64,000 bases of DNA, taken from assembly GCA_029560465.1 (NCBI GenBank), contig JAKQKX010000016.1:206221-270220 (forward strand), written 5' to 3'. The notes under the pieces are model-generated. The model saw only the letters and a list, made by a program, of their open reading frames with translations. It made no database searches and was not told the origin of the DNA. The position numbers and the translations under genes were made by a program. This DNA is from Candidatus Omnitrophota bacterium (GTDB lineage: Bacteria > Omnitrophota > Gorgyraeia > Zapsychrales > JANLHA01). This document shows positions 2,359 to 10,542 of the stretch, piece by piece (position 1 is the first letter of the stretch; the number at the start of each line of letters is the position of its first letter).

Positions 2359-2504
2359 GGGCCCAAGTGTATCCCCATCTTCCTTCAATATTATTATCCG
2401 GCCAGCAGTTTAATTCGTGTTTCTTTTCTTCCCCCTTGACTTTGGTGTATTACTGTATTATGCTTATAATACACATGGGTTCTGTGGATTTTGGAGAATA
2501 AATT

Positions 2505-2909
2505 ATGACAGAAGAGTCTAATTTTTATTTTCATATTGCGACAACATCCGGCGTCCCGATTTACCGGCAGATTATCGATCAGGTGAAAACACTAGCTGCT
2601 TTCGGCCGGGTCAGCCCCGGCGATTTCCTGCCTTCTGTGCGGCAGGTGGCCCAGGAACTTGAGATTAATCCGATGACGGTTTCTAAAGCGTATTCCTGGC
2701 TTGAGAAGGAGGGGGTCCTTGAATCTGTCCGGGGGCAGGGGATGCGGGTTAAAGAAGACAGGATTTCAAAAAAGGACATGAAAGAACGTAAAGACGCTCT
2801 GCTTCCTCTTTTAAAGCAGGTCGTTATCCAGGCCAGCCAACTATCTCTTGAGCCGGAGACGGTTATGGCTCTGCTCGAACGTTTATGGAAGGAGACTCCT
2901 CATGAATGA
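2505..2909 (+). CDS. GntR-family (YtrA-like short) transcriptional regulator
   Basis: N-terminal wHTH (IYRQIIDQVK...GDFLPSVRQVAQELEINPMTVSKAYSWLEKEGVL) with a short C-terminal tail. It is immediately upstream of an ABC transporter, as is typical for YtrA-type GntR regulators. Confidence 0.7.
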   Translation: MTEESNFYFHIATTSGVPIYRQIIDQVKTLAAFGRVSPGDFLPSVRQVAQELEINPMTVSKAYSWLEKEGVLESVRGQGMRVKEDRISKKDMKERKDALLPLLKQVVIQASQLSLEPETVMALLERLWKETPHE

Positions 2910-3780
2910 TCCCGTGATCCAGGCGCAGCGTGTCACCAAGCGGTATAAGGCCAAAACGATCCTCAATGATTTGTTTTTAGCGGTGCCCCGGGGCTCGGTG
3001 TTCGGGCTCTTGGGCAAGAACGGCGCCGGGAAGACAACACTCATCAAATGTGTGTTAGGGCTTGTGTATCCTCAGGACGGGCTGATATCGGTTTTGGGTG
3101 ATAACCCTAGGAATTTTCTGGAGAGGACCAAAGAACGGATCGGTTACGTCCCGCAGTCTGACCGGCCTTATCCCTGGCTGACTGTCCGGCAACTTGTCAC
3201 GTACACGGCATCTTTTTATCCGCTTTGGAATATGGCTTTGGTTGACAGGCTGTTGAAGGAATGGGAACTGGAGGAGGAGGACAAGGTCGGGCTTCTCTCC
3301 GAGGGGCAGGCACAGAAGCTTTCCATTATTCTCGCTCTGGGGCATGAGCCTGAATTGCTGATTTTTGATGAGCCGGTGGCGAGTTTGGACCCGGCGGCGC
3401 GGCGGAAGTTTTTGAAAACGATTTTAGACATTGTTGCGGACCGTGAATGCACGATATTCTTTTCCACGCATATTACGAGCGATTTGGAACGCGTGGCAGA
3501 CCGGGTTGCCCTGCTTAAAAACGGGACGATCGATTTCTGCGGAGAACTGGATGTCCTGAAAGATGAAGTAAAGCGTTTAAGGATTGTCTCTCCCGTCCCG
3601 TTGCCCCGGGATATTCCCGTAAACGGCGTCCTGCGCTGCGAGCTGTCTCAATATGAGGCGGTCCTGTCCGTGCGTGGGTTTCATGCCGGGATCAAATCTC
3701 AAATGGAGCAGCGCCTTAACGCCAGGATTGAAGTGGAAGACTTAAACCTGGAAGAAATATTCCTGGAGCTGCACGCATGA
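2902..3780 (+). CDS. ABC transporter ATP-binding protein
   Basis: Walker A GKNGAGKTT, signature LSEGQAQKL, Walker B LLIFDEP. The start is taken at internal ATG (MNDPVIQ), which overlaps the GntR stop. The tracked start at 2848 lies inside the GntR gene. Confidence 0.8.
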   Translation: MNDPVIQAQRVTKRYKAKTILNDLFLAVPRGSVFGLLGKNGAGKTTLIKCVLGLVYPQDGLISVLGDNPRNFLERTKERIGYVPQSDRPYPWLTVRQLVTYTASFYPLWNMALVDRLLKEWELEEEDKVGLLSEGQAQKLSIILALGHEPELLIFDEPVASLDPAARRKFLKTILDIVADRECTIFFSTHITSDLERVADRVALLKNGTIDFCGELDVLKDEVKRLRIVSPVPLPRDIPVNGVLRCELSQYEAVLSVRGFHAGIKSQMEQRLNARIEVEDLNLEEIFLELHA

Positions 3781-5165
3781 AAACCCGTTATTGTCAGATC
3801 GTCCTTCTTTATTTCCGGTACCTGCCTTACCGGATCCTGGCGCTGAGTCTTCTTGGGACGGCCCTGCTTTCAAGATTTTCCTTAGAACACAGACTTGTGG
3901 CCATCGCGGATGATTTCTTCACGTTTTTTGTCGTTGTCAGCGTGTGGCTGGCTTTTACCGCCGGAGTGCTTTTAAAACGGCAGATGGCCCAGCACCGGGC
4001 TTCGCTCCTGCCGCGCTACCGGCTCCCGCACATTATAGTCCCTTTCGGATTTTTCGCGTTTTTTCTCATCGTTTTTTGTTACTGGCTGGTCAGCCTCTAC
4101 CCGATCATTATTGTGAACCCGGGTGCGATTTGGTCGGTGTTTGTTTTATGCGCCCTTGTGATCTCAGTGGTCATATGGGTGGGTTACCTGTCGATTAACA
4201 TGCTTGTTTACCTGTCTTATTTCTCCATGCTTTTGGTCTCCTGGCAGGCGTATAACCTTGTTGTTTTTTTGACGGAACATACGGCCTGGCAATTTATCGT
4301 GGGTTGCGGGAGCGCCGTGTTGATGTTGGCCTTGGCCAGGAGGGGGATGTTTCTTAAAGAAGAATCCTTTGAGTACGGGTATATTATGATGTGGCCCCAA
4401 AAAGAGTTTTTGCATAATCAAATCAAAGCGGGCGAACTGTACACCCGCAGTGTGCGCGCTTTCCGGAAACGTTTTGGGATGCCAGCTGTGGTCCTAACGC
4501 TTCCGGGATATCCTCGGCGTGCTGCGCTTTGGCGCCGGGCGTTCCACTGGCACCGGATTGATTTTGCTGAATTAAAGGGCATATGGATGGCCTTGCTGGT
4601 CATGACACCGGTGTACCTCGCCAGCATCAGCCGACTGCCTCTCTGGCATGGATTTTTAAAAGACCCGTACAATAATTTCTTGTTGTATACTGTCGCCCCG
4701 GTTTTGCTTGTGCTGTGTGCGAACCACCGTAATATGACGACGTGGGGTTATGACGTGCTGAAGCCTGTCCGCAAGGGAGATTTTGTGCAGGAGCAGGGGG
4801 TGGCCCTGGTCGCAGGGCTGGGCTTTTATTGGTTCCTGTTCGTTTTTTACCTGGTTTTAACCCCGCACCTGGTCCTTAAGCCGGCTGAGTTGGCCCTGCC
4901 GCGCTTTTGGGGGTATCTTCTGTTGACGGGAAGTTTCGCGTTGTTGACGTTGTCCTGGGTTATTTTTATGAGCTGTTATTCATCGCGGCCGTGGTTTGTC
5001 ATTATCCACGGGGGTATCCTGTGCATGCTCGCCCAGCTGTTATTCATGGTCAGCGTACGCTTTTCCGGGATGATCAGCCTGGCAGTCAGCGTGGCCTGTT
5101 GGGTGGGCATATATGTATTTTTAAAGAGCGGTTATCGGAAATGGTGTGAAGCCGAATTCAACTAG
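3777..5165 (+). CDS. Polytopic membrane protein, putative permease partner of ABC ATPase
   Basis: ATGA overlap with the ATPase stop. It has more than 10 hydrophobic helices and no recognisable soluble domain. Confidence 0.45.
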   Translation: MKTRYCQIVLLYFRYLPYRILALSLLGTALLSRFSLEHRLVAIADDFFTFFVVVSVWLAFTAGVLLKRQMAQHRASLLPRYRLPHIIVPFGFFAFFLIVFCYWLVSLYPIIIVNPGAIWSVFVLCALVISVVIWVGYLSINMLVYLSYFSMLLVSWQAYNLVVFLTEHTAWQFIVGCGSAVLMLALARRGMFLKEESFEYGYIMMWPQKEFLHNQIKAGELYTRSVRAFRKRFGMPAVVLTLPGYPRRAALWRRAFHWHRIDFAELKGIWMALLVMTPVYLASISRLPLWHGFLKDPYNNFLLYTVAPVLLVLCANHRNMTTWGYDVLKPVRKGDFVQEQGVALVAGLGFYWFLFVFYLVLTPHLVLKPAELALPRFWGYLLLTGSFALLTLSWVIFMSCYSSRPWFVIIHGGILCMLAQLLFMVSVRFSGMISLAVSVACWVGIYVFLKSGYRKWCEAEFN

Positions 5166-5207: not shown

Positions 5208-5417
5208 ATGACACCGGAAGCCATTCGAAGTTTATGTAAAGCGGCTGCTTTGGTTTCGGCTGTGGCAGGCGCTTACGGCATGATGTTATGTGTGCCGTTC
5301 ATCGCCGGCACGCAGGTGGTTTTGATTGCCGCCGCCAGCTTGCCGTTTATCGCCGGAGCCGTCTTGGTAGCCGGAGGGTTGGTCAGTTACACGCTGCTCA
5401 TTCGCAAAGAAGCATAA
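5208..5417 (+). CDS. Small membrane protein (2 TM)
   Basis: 69 aa, mostly hydrophobic, with a GGAGG RBS upstream. Confidence 0.35.
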   Translation: MTPEAIRSLCKAAALVSAVAGAYGMMLCVPFIAGTQVVLIAAASLPFIAGAVLVAGGLVSYTLLIRKEA

Positions 5418-5516: not shown

Positions 5517-6314
5517 TTGCCGAAGGTCCAGGAATATTTTAAACTTGCGATGCATTTAGCCGGCTCCGCAGCGTTCGGGTGCGTCGCGGCGATCGCTTGG
5601 CATGAAGCCGGCCACATTATTTTTATCCTGGGTTGCGGGGGAGAGGTGACGGGAATCCACGTGCAGCCTTTTACCCGGTCGGCGGTGACATATAACATCC
5701 CGGCCACTGCGTCGTCCTGGATTGCGGCCTCGGGTATTTTAGCGGGGGTAACGGGCGGGGCGGTCCTGTTGGTGCCCTTGAGGGCAACCCGGAATCCTTA
5801 TGCGCTGCCGCTGGTGATGGCGGGGGTCGCGTCCTGGCTCGGGAACGGCTTATATCTCGTTTTAGGGAGCACCATTTTGAAGGGGTTCGGTGATCCGGGC
5901 CGGATGATCGCGCAGGGTTTCCCGGTCGGCGGGCTTTTTACGGCGGGGGTTTGTTGTGTGGCCTTGGGCGGCCTGGCGTTTATGCGGTTCCTTCCCCTGA
6001 CGGGTATTTCCCCGGACATGGCCATTTTGCCGCGGACGGGGATATTGCTCGGCGGTGTTTTCCCTTACCTGGCCGGGATCATTATTTATAATGGCATTCA
6101 TGATTTCCCTCGGCTCATGCGTTATTGCGTTTTTATGGCGTGGATACTGGGCCTGGCCTTATTGGGGAGCTGGATGGCGGGGCATCCGGCGGCGCGCTTG
6201 TTTAGAGGCGCGTATCCTGTTTTATCTGTCCGTTGGCCTCATGCCTGGACAGCGGCCGGCCTTGGGATTGGCGTTATTGCTGCGGCGCTTTATGCGGCGG
6301 GCGCCGCTGTTTAA
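5517..6314 (+). CDS. Integral membrane protein with HExxH motif (putative intramembrane metalloprotease-like)
   Basis: TTG start preceded by AGGAGG. WHEAGH is embedded in a hydrophobic segment. It has multiple Gly-rich TM helices. Confidence 0.35.
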   Translation: MPKVQEYFKLAMHLAGSAAFGCVAAIAWHEAGHIIFILGCGGEVTGIHVQPFTRSAVTYNIPATASSWIAASGILAGVTGGAVLLVPLRATRNPYALPLVMAGVASWLGNGLYLVLGSTILKGFGDPGRMIAQGFPVGGLFTAGVCCVALGGLAFMRFLPLTGISPDMAILPRTGILLGGVFPYLAGIIIYNGIHDFPRLMRYCVFMAWILGLALLGSWMAGHPAARLFRGAYPVLSVRWPHAWTAAGLGIGVIAAALYAAGAAV

Positions 6315-6359: not shown

Positions 6360-7049
6360 ATGCACGCGTTTTTCTCTTTTATAGCGGCGGTGTTGCCCGC
6401 CTTACTTTTGGTGAGGTATTTTTACAAGGCCAACCCTGCGCCGAAAAGGTTTATTGTTAAGGTGTTTCTCCTCGGAGTTATCTATACACTGCCGGTTTAT
6501 ATCCTGGAAGTGATCCTGGCTCGGTATAATATGTTTCCCCGCTGGTCATTTGTCCTTTATTATTTCTTTGAAGCCTTTATCGTCGCAGGATTATGCGAGG
6601 AATATATCAAATTAAGGATTATTAAAAAATATGTTTACGGAACCGTTTTTTTTCAGGGGGAGCGGGACGGCATTATTTTTACTGTGGTGGCCAGCATGGG
6701 GTTTGCCTGCATGGAGAACATCCTTTATGTGGTCAATCATTCTTGGAATATGGCGCTGGCCCGGGGCTTCACGGCGGTGCCCATGCATGCCGTTTGCTCT
6801 GGGGTGATGGGCTATTCTTTGGGGAAGGCCAAGCGTTCTCAGATATTAAACCGCCTTGCGGAAGAAAAAAAATATATAAATCAAGGGTTGTGGGAGGCGA
6901 TTTTGATCCACGGGTGTTATGATTTTTTTCTTTTTTTATCGCCGATATTAGGGTCTGTTTTCGCGATGTTCACGATCCCGCTTGTTTTAGGATATTACCT
7001 GGAACTCAGGAATAAGATGAAAAGGATGGGGCCGGAGGCCCGAATATAA
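6360..7049 (+). CDS. PrsW-family intramembrane protease-like protein
   Basis: EE-x-x-K (GLCEEYIKLR), FACMENILY and two His-containing TM motifs (HAVCSG, LIHGCYDFFLF) match the PrsW/CPBP-type signature. It has ~6 TM. Confidence 0.5.
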   Translation: MHAFFSFIAAVLPALLLVRYFYKANPAPKRFIVKVFLLGVIYTLPVYILEVILARYNMFPRWSFVLYYFFEAFIVAGLCEEYIKLRIIKKYVYGTVFFQGERDGIIFTVVASMGFACMENILYVVNHSWNMALARGFTAVPMHAVCSGVMGYSLGKAKRSQILNRLAEEKKYINQGLWEAILIHGCYDFFLFLSPILGSVFAMFTIPLVLGYYLELRNKMKRMGPEARI

Positions 7050-7064
7050 ATAAAGGAAGGTTGT

Positions 7065-7508
7065 TTGACAAATTTTATCTACAACTTGTTCGCTTACCCA
7101 TCGGCCTGGCTGACCGCTGTGTTTCATGACGCCGCGATTGCCTCCGCTAACGGGGGGGAGCTCTGGATCCTGCTCGTTCCCCGCCCGATTCATGTGACGC
7201 CGGAGTGCTGCGGGTTCAATTTTTTCGTTTTGCTCGGTGGTTATACGCTGTTGTTTATTTTACGCCGTTACCCTAGGCCCTGCGCCGGGCCTGCAGTTCT
7301 GCTGGCGCTTCCCGTGGTCTATGTGACAACCATTTGCGCCAACGCCGTACGGATGACATGTGCGTATCATGTGGCCTGTTTAAGCCGGACGCTGTTCCCC
7401 GCGTGTTTTCAGCCGGTGATTCACATGGCGGTGGGGATCGCCGTTTTTTTAAGTGCCCTTATCTTGAGCCATTTATTGATCGAAAGGATCGGCCTCTATG
7501 GAAAATGA
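7065..7508 (+). CDS. Minimal exosortase/archaeosortase-family protein (XrtN-like)
   Basis: TTG start with AAGGAAGG RBS. Candidate catalytic Cys (PECCGFNFF), Asn-x-x-Arg motif (ICANAVRMT) ~50 aa downstream, and a following His (AYHVAC). It has 4-5 TM and is only 147 aa. Confidence 0.45.
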   Translation: MTNFIYNLFAYPSAWLTAVFHDAAIASANGGELWILLVPRPIHVTPECCGFNFFVLLGGYTLLFILRRYPRPCAGPAVLLALPVVYVTTICANAVRMTCAYHVACLSRTLFPACFQPVIHMAVGIAVFLSALILSHLLIERIGLYGK

Positions 7509-10473
7509 CGCGCGGGAATCCGTTTTGCCCGGAATCTTAAAAAGGACCACGATGCTTTTCTGGGTTTTTATCCTGCCCCAAAGCGTGCTGTTAGCGCTCA
7601 ATTGTTTTTCCTTCTGGATTATCCGGGAGGAAATCCTCCCGCAAAATCTTATGGCGTCCTCGGTGTTGTTCGGCAGCGAAGTGTTCCTGATCGTGTTCCT
7701 TGGGGCTTTGTTTTATTCCTGGAAACGGGGCGGGCGCCGCGAGATCCCATGGACATGGAATTGGTTTTTTCTTTTGTTCCACATCGCCTATTTGTGGTTT
7801 GCGACGTCCGAGATCCCGCATATTATTCCCGGTGCTGTGGAATCCTGGGTTCTTGACCTGGGGCAGGTGATCCTGCAGCAATACACGTTTATGATGCCGG
7901 GATTATTTTATGCGGCGATGCGGCTGGCGTGTTTTGAAACCCGGTTGGACCGGGGGGTTGATATTGGGCGCAGCTTGCTGGTGGCGGTGGCGGCGCCCGC
8001 ATTATGGTATACGGCCATGCTGGGGTTGTCAACGTGCGTCCGGTGGACGTGGGGCTGGTTTCCGCCGGTTGTGGGGATTATTTTTTTCGTCGGGACCACC
8101 CTGGTCACGCTTGTTGCGCTGATCCGGCTGAGCGTGTTCTTTTACGGTTGGTATCAGAAGCGGGACCCTTGGATTCACAACACGGTTATCGCGCTGGTCG
8201 CAGTCGCCGGCCCGTTGGCGGGTTTGCTTTTGAACGCGCATATCCCTTTTCCGGCTGATTTTCAGGCCCCAGGGATATACATTTTAGCGATCTTAAACGG
8301 GCTTGTCTTGCTTGCCCCCTCGCTTTGGGGTGTCCGCGGCAAGGGCTGGCTTCTGTTTTTGCGCGCCTTGGCATATCCTTTTACCGTTTATTTCTTCCTG
8401 GTTTTTCTCCCCTTTCTGCCTTTATCGCTTTTAGCGATTTGCGCTCTGGGCCTGGGTTTTCTTTTCCTGATTCCGTTAACCTTGTTTTTGATTCATACGA
8501 AGATTCTTGTTGAAGACGCCCGGATGTGGTCGGCCCGGCGGGGACGGGCATCGGCTGCGGTTTTGCTTTGCTCCGCCTGTCTGGTTTTGCCGGGTTATTT
8601 GATCCTGGAAGCGGCGTGGGATAAGTCCGCCATTCAGCAGGCGCTGGATTACGTGTATTCTGCCGATTATGAACAACCGCAGCATTTTCAGGGTTCCCTT
8701 TATACGGTCAAGAAAGTTTTAGTCAAGATGAAGCGGGTTAAAGCCGGGGCCCGGATGCCGTATCTTTCCGCTTTTTATAATAAAGTCGTTTTTAACGGCA
8801 TGGTTTTGCCTGATGACAAAATCGAATATATGTACCGGCTTTTTACAGGGGAAGCTGTGCCGGATGTGCAGGCTCCGGCGGCTTTTTTCGGCGGGAGAGG
8901 TCGTTTGCGGTCTTCCCGGGGCGGGGGACAAGGCCGCCGGATACAGCGTAACCGCGAGGTTATATTGTCTTCGTTCAAGAGGTTCAGTGAGGATAAGGAG
9001 TTTACCACCGTCACAAGATTACAGTTGTATATGCAGAACACCGGCGGGGATGATGCGGCGGAATTTTTTCAGGAATGCGAGATCCCCGCTGGTGTTCTGA
9101 TTTCGGATTTCCGCCTGCTTGTGAACAAAGAAGTCGTGCGGGGGCAACTGTTTGAAAAAGAAACCGCCACGTGGGTTTATCATATGATTCGGGACTGGAC
9201 GCGCCGTGATCCGGGGCTCCTTGTTTATGTTTCGCCCACCCGGGTGGAGATGAGTGTCTTCCCGTTTCAGAAAAACGAAATGCGTTACGCCGAATTGGAA
9301 TTGACGTATCCCCGGGGGATGGCCCCGGTCATCAAGATCGGCCAATATCCGATATTTTTGAAAGATAGCCCCGTGCACAATGGGGCGATGCCGATGGCCT
9401 TGACGGGCGGCGATCCCGGCGGGGAGGATTATGCTTTTGTCCTGACGCATCCCGCGTATTCTTCCCTGTTCTTCAGGCGGAAGCCTTACCTGCATTTTAT
9501 CCTTGATTTTTCCGCCGGGTCGGAATTGTCTGCGGATGCCGCCCTGCCGAGGATTCTTGAGGCGGCTTCTGTGTTCCCTGAGGCGGACCTGGTCCATGTC
9601 AGCGCGGTGAATTTTGAAGTTGAGCTCTTGAGTCGGGATTATATTGCTGTCCGCGATAAGGCGCTGATCCGGGCGGCGATAGACGCGGCCCGTCTTCCCC
9701 GCCGGGGGAGCGTGGACCTGTCCCGGGCGATGAAACGGATTTTGTCGCTTTATCAGGCCAAGCGGGCAGCCGGGGTTCCCGAGACATGGCAGCGGTATCC
9801 GGTTTTTGTTGTTATCTCGGATAGGGCAGACCATCTCCTAGGGCCGGACGATATGGCGTTTTATCAGGACCTGGTTCCGGAACAGACCCGGTACTATATT
9901 TCGACCCTGGACCAGGGTTTAAAAGATTACCCCCTTTTCCTTCCCAGCGCGGTTGCCACGGAACAGGTCGTGGTGATTAAACACGGCCCGCACATTTCTT
10001 GGGTCCCGGTTTCCGCGGACCCGCAATGGCGGTTGGCCGCAAGCCTTGGACAAAATCTGAAGGCTGTTTATGAAGTGTATTTCCCCGGGGAAGACATGTT
10101 TGCTCCTTTACAGTCCATGCCCCTCCCTTCCCAGTCGGATTACGCGCAGGATATGGGGCTTTTTATCCGTAACGCCCGTATGATGAAGAACCCCGCCAGG
10201 TTGGCGTCGGGGCTGACGGCGCTGGTGCGGGACAGTAAGTCCAGGCGGGTCATGATCCCATCGACGTCCTATATTGTCGTTGAGCGCAGCTCTCAGTGGA
10301 AAACCTTGACTAAGAAAGAGGGGCAGAAAATGGCCAGCGCGCCGGGGTTGGAATTTGAAGAGGATTTTGATACTCCGGCGCCTTCGATGTGGCTGGTTGG
10401 AGGACTGTTTCTCCTGTGGTTGTGCCGGCGGCAGCGAAGACCGGGCCGTTTCCTGGCCCCGTCTGTCCGTTAG
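7498..10473 (+). CDS. Large polytopic membrane protein with VIT-like and vWA-like domains and a C-terminal sorting-signal-like tail
   Basis: Overlaps the upstream gene by 11 nt. The N-terminal ~330 aa has more than 10 TM. The central part is VIT-like (ECEIPAGVLISDFRLLVNKEVVRGQLFEKETATWVY), then vWA-like with a near-MIDAS motif LDFSAGSE. The C-terminus is PAPSMWLVGGLFLLWLCRRQRRPGR, i.e. motif, TM helix, then an Arg cluster. Confidence 0.55.
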   Translation: MENDARESVLPGILKRTTMLFWVFILPQSVLLALNCFSFWIIREEILPQNLMASSVLFGSEVFLIVFLGALFYSWKRGGRREIPWTWNWFFLLFHIAYLWFATSEIPHIIPGAVESWVLDLGQVILQQYTFMMPGLFYAAMRLACFETRLDRGVDIGRSLLVAVAAPALWYTAMLGLSTCVRWTWGWFPPVVGIIFFVGTTLVTLVALIRLSVFFYGWYQKRDPWIHNTVIALVAVAGPLAGLLLNAHIPFPADFQAPGIYILAILNGLVLLAPSLWGVRGKGWLLFLRALAYPFTVYFFLVFLPFLPLSLLAICALGLGFLFLIPLTLFLIHTKILVEDARMWSARRGRASAAVLLCSACLVLPGYLILEAAWDKSAIQQALDYVYSADYEQPQHFQGSLYTVKKVLVKMKRVKAGARMPYLSAFYNKVVFNGMVLPDDKIEYMYRLFTGEAVPDVQAPAAFFGGRGRLRSSRGGGQGRRIQRNREVILSSFKRFSEDKEFTTVTRLQLYMQNTGGDDAAEFFQECEIPAGVLISDFRLLVNKEVVRGQLFEKETATWVYHMIRDWTRRDPGLLVYVSPTRVEMSVFPFQKNEMRYAELELTYPRGMAPVIKIGQYPIFLKDSPVHNGAMPMALTGGDPGGEDYAFVLTHPAYSSLFFRRKPYLHFILDFSAGSELSADAALPRILEAASVFPEADLVHVSAVNFEVELLSRDYIAVRDKALIRAAIDAARLPRRGSVDLSRAMKRILSLYQAKRAAGVPETWQRYPVFVVISDRADHLLGPDDMAFYQDLVPEQTRYYISTLDQGLKDYPLFLPSAVATEQVVVIKHGPHISWVPVSADPQWRLAASLGQNLKAVYEVYFPGEDMFAPLQSMPLPSQSDYAQDMGLFIRNARMMKNPARLASGLTALVRDSKSRRVMIPSTSYIVVERSSQWKTLTKKEGQKMASAPGLEFEEDFDTPAPSMWLVGGLFLLWLCRRQRRPGRFLAPSVR

Positions 10474-10542
10474 GCCCGCCGGCTGTATGATCAGCTTTGT
10501 TTTTAATGGCAAAGTTGTTTAGTTTCTGTTAAGATAATCGCC

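Follow-up and report, generated by a model that had tools for sequence, protein, structure and literature searches.

A Probable Exosortase K/MSEP-CTERM Sorting Pair with Putative Intramembrane Protease Genes Added in a Candidatus Omnitrophota Bacterium

Introduction

The described system closest to the locus considered here is the exosortase K (XrtK)/MSEP-CTERM pair, catalogued as TIGR04287 for the enzyme and TIGR04286 for the substrate. The locus lies within a 64,000-nucleotide stretch of DNA from a Candidatus Omnitrophota bacterium (GenBank assembly GCA_029560465.1, contig JAKQKX010000016.1), the whole of which is called the window below. It consists of a gene for a 147-amino-acid (aa) exosortase-like protein and a gene for a 991-aa membrane protein, preceded by a gene for a PrsW-family intramembrane protease. 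The original prediction, made from the DNA letters alone, regarded these three genes as a candidate for an undescribed sorting module. The present analysis indicates that positions 7065-10473 very probably encode a dedicated XrtK-type pair, one enzyme and one substrate, situated at the end of an eight-gene operon in which PrsW is an add-on. The result is mostly corrective: the apparent undescribed system is the catalogued exosortase K/MSEP-CTERM pair. What is new is a divergent, N-terminally shortened XrtK that is annotated as "hypothetical" and an operon that has gained two predicted intramembrane proteases; this variant also has a TPAP tag, while the pair itself was already catalogued.

The window locus shares with the catalogued pair a full-length substrate match, XrtK as the best enzyme subfamily, a sortase gene directly upstream of and usually overlapping the substrate gene, and a tag at the aligned position with an invariant final proline. 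It differs in the sortase, which has 147 aa against the 163 positions of the exosortase K model and the ~175-190 aa of its relatives, and in which the first helix is absent. Its tag is TPAP rather than MSEP, its host belongs to Omnitrophota rather than Bacteroidota, and it lies in an operon of eight genes that also includes a GntR/ABC module and two additional, predicted intramembrane proteases. The exosortase N (XrtN) system (TIGR04476/TIGR04477) is also similar, in that a dedicated exosortase serves one large VIT-domain target with many transmembrane (TM) segments, and XrtN had been named in the original prediction as the partner of MSEP-CTERM. This conflates two systems, since MSEP-CTERM pairs with XrtK and the XrtN target is TIGR04477. 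Residues 283-353 of the 991-aa protein do share a homologous membrane segment with TIGR04477 (E 1.2e-11), but the similarity is local only and scores 43.6 bits against a cutoff of 250; the XrtN model gives no match for the 147-aa protein.

More distant comparisons are available for both proteins. Archaeosortase A (ArtA) of Haloferax volcanii, the enzyme of the PGF-CTERM system, belongs to the same superfamily as the window enzyme. It likewise reads a tripartite C-terminal signal, and it depends on a conserved Cys and Arg to which those of the window enzyme may correspond, whereas it is larger, archaeal and has many substrates. Its cleavage and lipid attachment reactions have been shown experimentally (PMC9263693, PMC6098224), and its activity requires the conserved residues Cys173, Arg214 and Arg253 (PMC9263693). 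On the substrate side, the window protein resembles the bacterial vault/ITI-like proteins in its VIT and vWA ectodomain, its terminal tag and its dedicated adjacent enzyme. The vault/ITI-like proteins have an N-terminal signal peptide instead of an 11-helix membrane domain, and their enzymes are rhombosortase, full-size exosortase or sortase. The tags they bear are interchangeable (GlyGly-CTERM, PEP-CTERM or LPXTG) and are served by dedicated adjacent sorting enzymes (PMC3237569), so that the general theme of tagged VIT/vWA proteins has been published since 2011.

Gene Layout

The three genes are arranged in the window as follows.

6360-7049, plus strand: PrsW-family open reading frame (ORF), 229 aa
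7065-7508, plus strand: XrtK-like ORF, 147 aa, TTG start
7498-10473, plus strand: MSEP-CTERM ORF, 991 aa

The three co-directional ORFs and their coupled junctions were found again as first described. The PrsW stop codon ends at 7049 and the TTG of the 147-aa gene stands at 7065, which leaves a gap of 15 nucleotides, with AAGGAAGG immediately 5' of the TTG. The 147-aa and 991-aa genes overlap by 11 nucleotides (7498-7508). In ratios of nonsynonymous to synonymous substitution rates (dN/dS) against the closest relatives, PrsW gives 0.10-0.13, the 147-aa gene 0.17-0.25 and the 991-aa gene 0.16-0.20, and therefore all three are real genes under purifying selection. PrsW and XrtK are in the same frame in the window, and the idea that they form one split or fused gene was considered and ruled out: in a related locus (L006) they occupy different frames with a 4-nucleotide overlap, and each gene keeps its own conserved start.

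The MSEP-CTERM Protein and Its Sorting Tag

The 991-aa protein scores 384.6 bits on the NCBIfam model TIGR04286 (MSEP-CTERM; cutoff 150), with its residues 15-980 aligned to positions 4-915 of the 920-position model. A sequence identical to it is already in GenBank under the name MSEP-CTERM, in the Candidatus Omnitrophota metagenome-assembled genome (MAG) GCA_035400085.1, and is also found on Joint Genome Institute (JGI) metagenome contigs. With a full-length family member whose identical copy has already been so named by NCBI, the claim of an undescribed system does not hold. Relatives named MSEP-CTERM are found in Planctomycetota, Verrucomicrobiota (Chthoniobacterales, Rariglobus), Kiritimatiellota, Gammaproteobacteria (among them the isolate Thalassotalea sp. 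PS06) and Hymenobacter. The AlphaFold2 model of the protein, built from an 85-sequence alignment, has a pLDDT (predicted local distance difference test) of 86.7 and a pTM (predicted template modelling score) of 0.84, and it divides the chain into the following parts.

7498-8658, plus strand: N-terminal polytopic domain, residues 1-387, with 11 helices (residues 18-387) and the conserved motifs PFPADFQ and YFFLVFLPFLPLS
8959-9447, plus strand: VIT-like beta-rich domain, ~residues 488-650
9481-10122, plus strand: vWA-like alpha/beta domain, ~residues 662-875, with an incomplete metal-ion-dependent adhesion site (MIDAS)
10372-10473, plus strand: tripartite sorting tag, with TPAP (959-962), a hydrophobic helix (~964-979), an RRQRR cluster and the stop codon

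Beyond the vWA-like region the model has a helical stretch at 881-946 and a last helix at 964-979, which is followed by RRQRR. The large protein is thus modelled as it had been predicted, a polytopic VIT/vWA protein with a tripartite C-terminal tail, with 11 helices in its N-terminal part. The tag aligns at TPAP with the MSEP motif of the Bacteroidota members. In the 85-sequence alignment its first column is T, S or A, its second P (72) or S (13), its third mostly A (43) or E (38) and its fourth P in 85/85 (Pro962 in the window protein), and next come hydrophobic residues and a cluster of R/K. Bacteroidota have the MSEP form of the tag, while TPAP or the PEP-CTERM-like SPEP is the common form in this sample, which is biased to relatives of the query. 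The statement that the tag differs and that the host lies outside Bacteroidota is right in its particulars, the tag being TPAP and the host Omnitrophota, yet the TPAP type of tag is the commonest one in the sample (of the 85 sequences, 72 have P in the second column, 81 have A or E in the third, and all have the final P). Within the 64-kb window the 991-aa protein is the sole ORF with such a C-terminal tail, which fits a dedicated one-to-one system so far as one window can tell.

The ectodomain resembles that of the inter-alpha-trypsin inhibitor heavy chains. The VIT-like domain scores 24.3 bits against Pfam PF08487, slightly under the 26.5-bit cutoff, and most homologues have a precomputed PF08487 match. 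A profile of the domain matches the VIT domains of ITIH4 and ITIH1, and Foldseek matches the 991-aa model to the ITIH1 structure 6fpy over ~590 columns with an E-value of 2e-11. By the near-cutoff Pfam score together with the profile and Foldseek matches, the protein belongs among those with a VIT domain. In the vWA-like domain D670 and S672 of the DFSAGS motif are near-invariant and the third MIDAS serine is variable, so "near-MIDAS" was a fair description of it. A complete MIDAS (DxSxS plus the distal Thr and Asp) is not present in this domain of the 991-aa protein.

In the predicted topology the N-terminus is cytoplasmic, the chain crosses the membrane eleven times and the VIT-vWA region is periplasmic, since the loop charges (KR 15-16, KRGGRRE 75-81, QKRD ~219-222, RGKG ~275-278 and ARRGR ~347-351) fit the positive-inside rule. 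The ITIH-like VIT-vWA ectodomain would accordingly lie outside the cytoplasmic membrane, and the last helix would lead back to the cytoplasm with its RRQRR cluster. An Arg/Gly/Ser-rich linker, FFGGRGRLRSSRGGGQGRRIQRNRE, at 8860-8940 of the window (~residues 455-482), stands between the membrane and VIT domains and is predicted to be disordered. Its residues 463-479 have low confidence in the model, and across the family its sequence varies while its basic character is retained.

The XrtK-like Enzyme

The 147-aa protein is named "hypothetical protein" by NCBI. Its best family is exosortase K (TIGR04287), with 29.4 bits against a cutoff of 55 and a match limited to model positions 65-157 of 163. 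Against the exosortase/archaeosortase signature TIGR04178 it scores 27.4 bits, over the cutoff of 23, with residues 43-139 aligned to positions 2-92 of the 97-position model. It is thus, by its sequence matches, taken to be an exosortase-family member and is presumed to be the sorting enzyme. A homology search with it gave at least 10 proteins, and a 9-sequence alignment was built. C48, N93 and R96 of ANAVR, H120 and G124 are invariant in 69 XrtK-like homologues. The Cys and Asn-x-x-Arg that had been pointed out in this protein therefore fall at conserved positions of the family, the relevant Cys being the first one in PECCGF.

The protein does not have the full-length XrtK architecture with its first hydrophobic helix. 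The residues preceding the Cys number 46-47 in the window clade, the small group of close relatives to which the window belongs, and in its sister locus L097, against at least 70 elsewhere (median 84). The resulting 143-148-aa form is shorter than every other XrtK-like partner sampled, bar one questionable locus. This is a Gammaproteobacterial MAG (Exilibacterium, L049 5559-5981), in which the XrtK-like ORF has at most 140 aa and only 39 residues ahead of the Cys; this odd exception reflects either a separate truncation event or an error in the sequence of the MAG.

The AlphaFold2 model of the 147-aa protein has a pLDDT of 86.7 and consists of 4 helices and a small three-stranded sheet, roughly the scaffold of four to five TM segments that had been expected. 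The first helix of the model (2-20) is followed by the sheet (24-44), Cys48 stands at the start of the second helix (51-68), and after a basic RRYPRP turn come the third helix (71-110), with Asn93 and Arg96, and the fourth (113-144), with His120 and Gly124. In this model Cys48, Asn93/Arg96 and His120 would be near the periplasmic ends of three helices, where the TPAP of the substrate would sit. With its four helices, small sheet and conserved Cys, Asn-x-x-Arg and His, the 143-148-aa form could be a minimal scaffold for first structural and biochemical work.

Conservation of the Pair

Relatives of the locus were collected by an alignment-based scan with one genome per species, which yielded 80 loci (a scan with a single protein query gave none), and XrtK-like ORFs were located by ORF calling and iterative hidden Markov model searches. 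An XrtK-like ORF is present in 75/83 loci. In 69 loci both it and the MSEP-CTERM gene could be positioned, and in 64 of them the two genes are adjacent or overlapping. The paired loci span Omnitrophota, Planctomycetota, Verrucomicrobiota, Lentisphaerota/Victivallales, Kiritimatiellia, Gammaproteobacteria and Bacteroidota (L080, Hymenobacter; L083, Cytophagaceae). When the neighbouring proteins are clustered all against all, XrtK-like and MSEP-CTERM are the only universally conserved ones. These family matches and this synteny agree with the idea of an exosortase-type dedicated sorting module, which was the sound core of the first reading.

All sampled partners (24/24) match the XrtK model and all 24 also pass TIGR04178. 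The TIGR04287 cutoff is passed only by the Bacteroidota-type partners (114.7 bits in L080, 139.3 in L083 and 92.9 in L081), while those of Omnitrophota, the Planctomycetota-Verrucomicrobiota-Chlamydiota (PVC) group and Gammaproteobacteria score 26-44 bits. The sequence comparisons indicate that the XrtK-like partners form one continuous family and that the curated TIGR04287 model is narrow. The XrtK-like proteins outside Bacteroidota go unnamed because these scores fall under the curated cutoff, despite synteny and invariant residues. The outcome is an annotation gap, in which the cognate sortases of Omnitrophota, Planctomycetota, Verrucomicrobiota, Lentisphaerota and Gammaproteobacteria are left as "hypothetical" or under generic names, and a rebuilt XrtK model would fix many genomes.

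The neighbourhood of the pair differs between lineages. In Verrucomicrobia-type loci (L019, L039, L050, L060 and others) the genes upstream of XrtK encode a ~216-aa protein, a regulator of the HTH_34/ArsR-like type and one or two 410-500-aa membrane proteins that have no family match. Genes for a small regulator and for membrane proteins thus precede the pair in more than a single phylum.

The PrsW Gene

The 229-aa protein upstream of XrtK has the PrsW signature that had been reported for it, with all motifs present (EEYIK at 80, FACMEN at 115, H143 and H184). It scores 98.4 bits against Pfam PF13367 (cutoff 23.5) and 117.4 bits against NF033739, the Bacillus subtilis-type equivalog, which is under the cutoff of 225. 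It is classed as a glutamic-type intramembrane protease.

PrsW stands beside the pair only in the window clade, which comprises L001 and L002 (same sequence as the window), L004, L005, L006 and L084, the last found by a metagenome scan, in an activated-sludge metagenome. It is absent from ~70 other XrtK/MSEP loci in at least 7 lineages. The sister locus L097 has GntR, ABC ATPase, 461-aa, 69-aa and M50B-like genes, followed by a 143-aa XrtK with 45% identity and by an MSEP-CTERM protein that is 44% identical and whose tag reads DTPSPS. At the position of PrsW it has an 84-aa ORF, and tblastn detects no PrsW remnant there. No gene for XrtK, MSEP-CTERM or an M50B-like protein lies within 5 kb of the PrsW relatives outside the clade (L085-L091, 39-51% identity); their neighbours are carbamoyl-phosphate synthase, radical SAM, alkaline phosphatase, Lnb-domain and YitT genes. 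PrsW is thus a later, clade-specific insertion that is presumably co-expressed and is under selection, not a defining component of the sorting system. The view that it is integral to the system fails on its absence elsewhere, L097 included. The triad of PrsW, XrtK and MSEP-CTERM recurs solely in close relatives, so that the refuting condition named in the original prediction, absence of the triad from every other genome, holds only in a trivial sense.

Upstream Genes and Layered History

The operon that the sorting pair closes has eight genes, in the order GntR, ABC ATPase, 462-aa membrane protein, 69-aa protein, M50B-like metalloprotease, PrsW, XrtK-like and MSEP-CTERM. The five genes ahead of PrsW are the following.

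2505-2909, plus strand: GntR-family regulator, short (134 aa), PF00392 52.5 bits; first gene of the cluster, with a GntR gene at the same position in 11 loci
2902-3780, plus strand: ABC-transporter ATPase, PF00005 90.2 bits; its start overlaps the GntR stop; present in 16 loci and 67% identical in L097
3777-5165, plus strand: 462-aa polytopic membrane protein, 8 hydrophobic segments; overlaps the ABC ATPase stop; ~460-aa homologues at the same position in 12 loci
5208-5417, plus strand: 69-aa protein with two TM helices, 78% identical in L097, the most conserved protein of the operon
5517-6314, plus strand: probable M50B-like (site-2-protease-type) zinc intramembrane metalloprotease, divergent, 265 aa, with HEAGH at residues 29-33 and Asp126

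The 462-aa membrane protein has no match in Pfam or NCBIfam and is probably the permease partner of the ABC ATPase. In 11-16 loci across Omnitrophota the GntR/ABC/462-aa module (2505-5165) is again found upstream of XrtK/MSEP-CTERM, and in one Verrucomicrobia locus (L040) it lies downstream. This recurrence hints at a functional link between the transporter and the sorting pair. The 69-aa protein has no family match and is found in all Omnitrophota loci with the GntR/ABC module; its 78% identity in L097 compares with 38-44% for its large neighbours.

The 265-aa protein itself has no direct Pfam or NCBIfam match. It has 117 relatives in a representative library, and in 37 of these, 27 of which match PF13398, H29, E30, H33 and D126 are invariant. 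A profile built on the protein matches the site-2 protease structure of M. jannaschii, 3b4r (E 3.5e-6). The case for an M50B-like metalloprotease is thus indirect but good. At pair loci its gene is found only in the window clade and L097, exactly where XrtK is short.

The order across Omnitrophota at large is GntR, ABC ATPase, ~460-aa membrane protein, ~69-aa two-TM protein, XrtK and MSEP-CTERM. The M50B-like and PrsW genes have been inserted stepwise between the conserved 69-aa gene and xrtK. The locus comparisons therefore resolve the neighbourhood into four layers: the core pair in all sampled lineages, the GntR/ABC/69-aa genes in Omnitrophota, the M50B-like gene together with the loss of XrtK helix 1 in one sub-lineage, and PrsW in this clade. 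Such a layered neighbourhood can guide questions on the role of the VIT-vWA membrane protein.

Proposed Mechanism and Alternative Explanations

In the favoured explanation the 147-aa XrtK-like protein would be a membrane cysteine transpeptidase-like enzyme and the 991-aa protein its substrate. XrtK would recognise the signal of TPAP, helix and basic cluster at the periplasmic face of the membrane and, by analogy with archaeosortase A, would cleave at TPAP through Cys48, with Arg96 and His120 assisting. The C-terminal helix and the basic tail would be removed by this cleavage, and the new C-terminus would probably be transferred to an acceptor molecule, for instance the head group of a lipid or a glycan of the envelope. 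The protein that results would be held in the membrane by its eleven N-terminal helices and would bear a processed VIT-vWA ectodomain. The family assignments, conserved residues, gene neighbourhoods, modelled folds and selection are results of the analysis, whereas the topology, the cleavage and transfer steps, the biological role and any part played by the proteases or the ABC module are inferences.

Several points weigh against this explanation. The 147-aa protein fails the curated XrtK cutoff (29.4 versus 55 bits) and has no counterpart of the first 25-30 model residues, and under the NCBI rule it is therefore not an XrtK equivalog. The equivalence of C48 and R96 to Cys173 and Arg214 of ArtA rests on the TIGR04178 match, not on a direct alignment to the studied enzyme. 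Similarly, the topology of the substrate rests on predicted helices and the positive-inside rule rather than on a topology predictor or the model coordinates. Because PrsW is tightly coupled and strongly conserved within its clade, it may have a real functional tie to the pair in this lineage. In addition, neither experiments on XrtK or MSEP-CTERM nor descriptions of them were found in the searchable literature.

The alternatives differ mainly in what they make of the two protease genes. The M50B-like and PrsW proteins may form an independent regulated intramembrane proteolysis pair, with an unrelated signalling role such as the cleavage of an anti-sigma factor or another membrane regulator, that merely rides in the operon. 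In Bacillus subtilis PrsW and RasP form a site-1/site-2 pair of intramembrane proteases, and the window resembles this sigma-W pathway in encoding a PrsW-family protease and an M50-type zinc protease together. The PrsW family is also widespread, its relatives occur in varied contexts, and relatives of the M50B-like protein likewise occur in unrelated ones (L093). The resemblance is incomplete, however. Family searches reveal no sigma or anti-sigma gene in the operon, the window PrsW falls well short of the B. subtilis-type equivalog (117 versus 225 bits), the M50B-like gene of L097 has no PrsW beside it, so the two are not an obligate pair, and the PrsW relatives outside the clade have no M50B-like neighbour. 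An independent cassette of this kind is a tentative possibility and on the whole unlikely.

The two proteases might instead act on the same pathway as the sorting pair within this sub-lineage, by clearing the leftover TM-plus-basic tail or by cutting the substrate elsewhere, for example to release the ectodomain, and they might compensate for or relate to the loss of XrtK helix 1. M50 proteases, RseP among them, break down remnant signal peptides, and PrsW with RasP makes up the B. subtilis site-1/site-2 pair mentioned above. The stepwise insertions exactly between the 69-aa gene and xrtK, the co-occurrence of the short XrtK with the M50B-like gene in the window clade and L097, the tight coupling of the genes and the purifying selection on all of them are in keeping with such an accessory role. 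Yet the association is confined to one small sub-lineage, most XrtK/MSEP systems work with neither protease, and co-location could be mere insertion at a permissive intergenic site; such a role is accordingly judged rather improbable. A more elaborate scheme would have the system remodelled in one Omnitrophota sub-lineage into a multi-protease pathway, in which the sortase has lost its first TM helix, the M50B-like protease and then PrsW were recruited upstream, and three membrane-embedded peptidases act in sequence on the VIT-vWA substrate, either by tag cleavage through XrtK followed by tail clearance or by ectodomain release, perhaps under GntR/ABC control. This scheme is speculative and quite improbable.

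A new three-component sorting system, in which PrsW would be obligatory alongside a minimal exosortase and the VIT/vWA protein, is very improbable. The translational coupling of the three genes, the retention of their arrangement in L004, L005, L006 and L084, down to 53% MSEP identity, and the strong purifying selection on PrsW (dN/dS ~0.1) speak for it, and intramembrane proteases of the glutamic type from the related CPBP family themselves sort other C-terminal tags (10.1101/2023.06.07.544157). All of this is outweighed by the ~70 pair loci that have no PrsW, by L097, which shares the rest of the operon yet has neither PrsW nor a remnant of it, by the unrelated contexts of the nearest PrsW relatives outside the clade, and by the fact that the substrate and sortase families were already defined without PrsW. 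Least probable is that the 147-aa protein is a decaying XrtK remnant, truncated when the protease genes were inserted, and that the large protein is no longer processed, for although it has no first helix, which almost all relatives have, and scores under the XrtK cutoff, the gene shows a clade-wide dN/dS of 0.17-0.25, none of the five family-invariant residues is lost, the same short form is retained in L097 at 45% identity, the substrate tag is intact and conserved, and the AlphaFold2 model is compact and confident.

Operon Limits and Minor Observations

Two elements were noted at the edges of the operon.

2436-2464, plus strand: sigma-70-like promoter match, TTGACT-17-TATGCT, 9/12 matches, 5' of the GntR gene
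10492-10517, plus strand: terminator-like hairpin with a 10-bp stem and a T-rich tail, just 3' of the MSEP-CTERM stop

The promoter match is only weakly suggestive of the operon start, as sigma-70-like sites are no more numerous in the region than in shuffled sequence. The hairpin is a possible, weak candidate for the operon end.

An antisense ORF of 271 aa (9019-9834, minus strand) inside the MSEP-CTERM gene was considered and rejected as an artefact; it clusters over 53 loci only as a shadow of the conserved MSEP-CTERM coding sequence. In one JGI contig (L001 2280-3668) the counterpart of the 462-aa ORF is broken into ORFs of 192 and 259 aa, which is either an interrupted variant or an assembly error of the metagenome contig. 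Over the whole window (1-64000) the long ORFs are nearly all on the plus strand and the GC skew is positive in every 2-kb bin, consistent with a position on the leading strand of one replichore.

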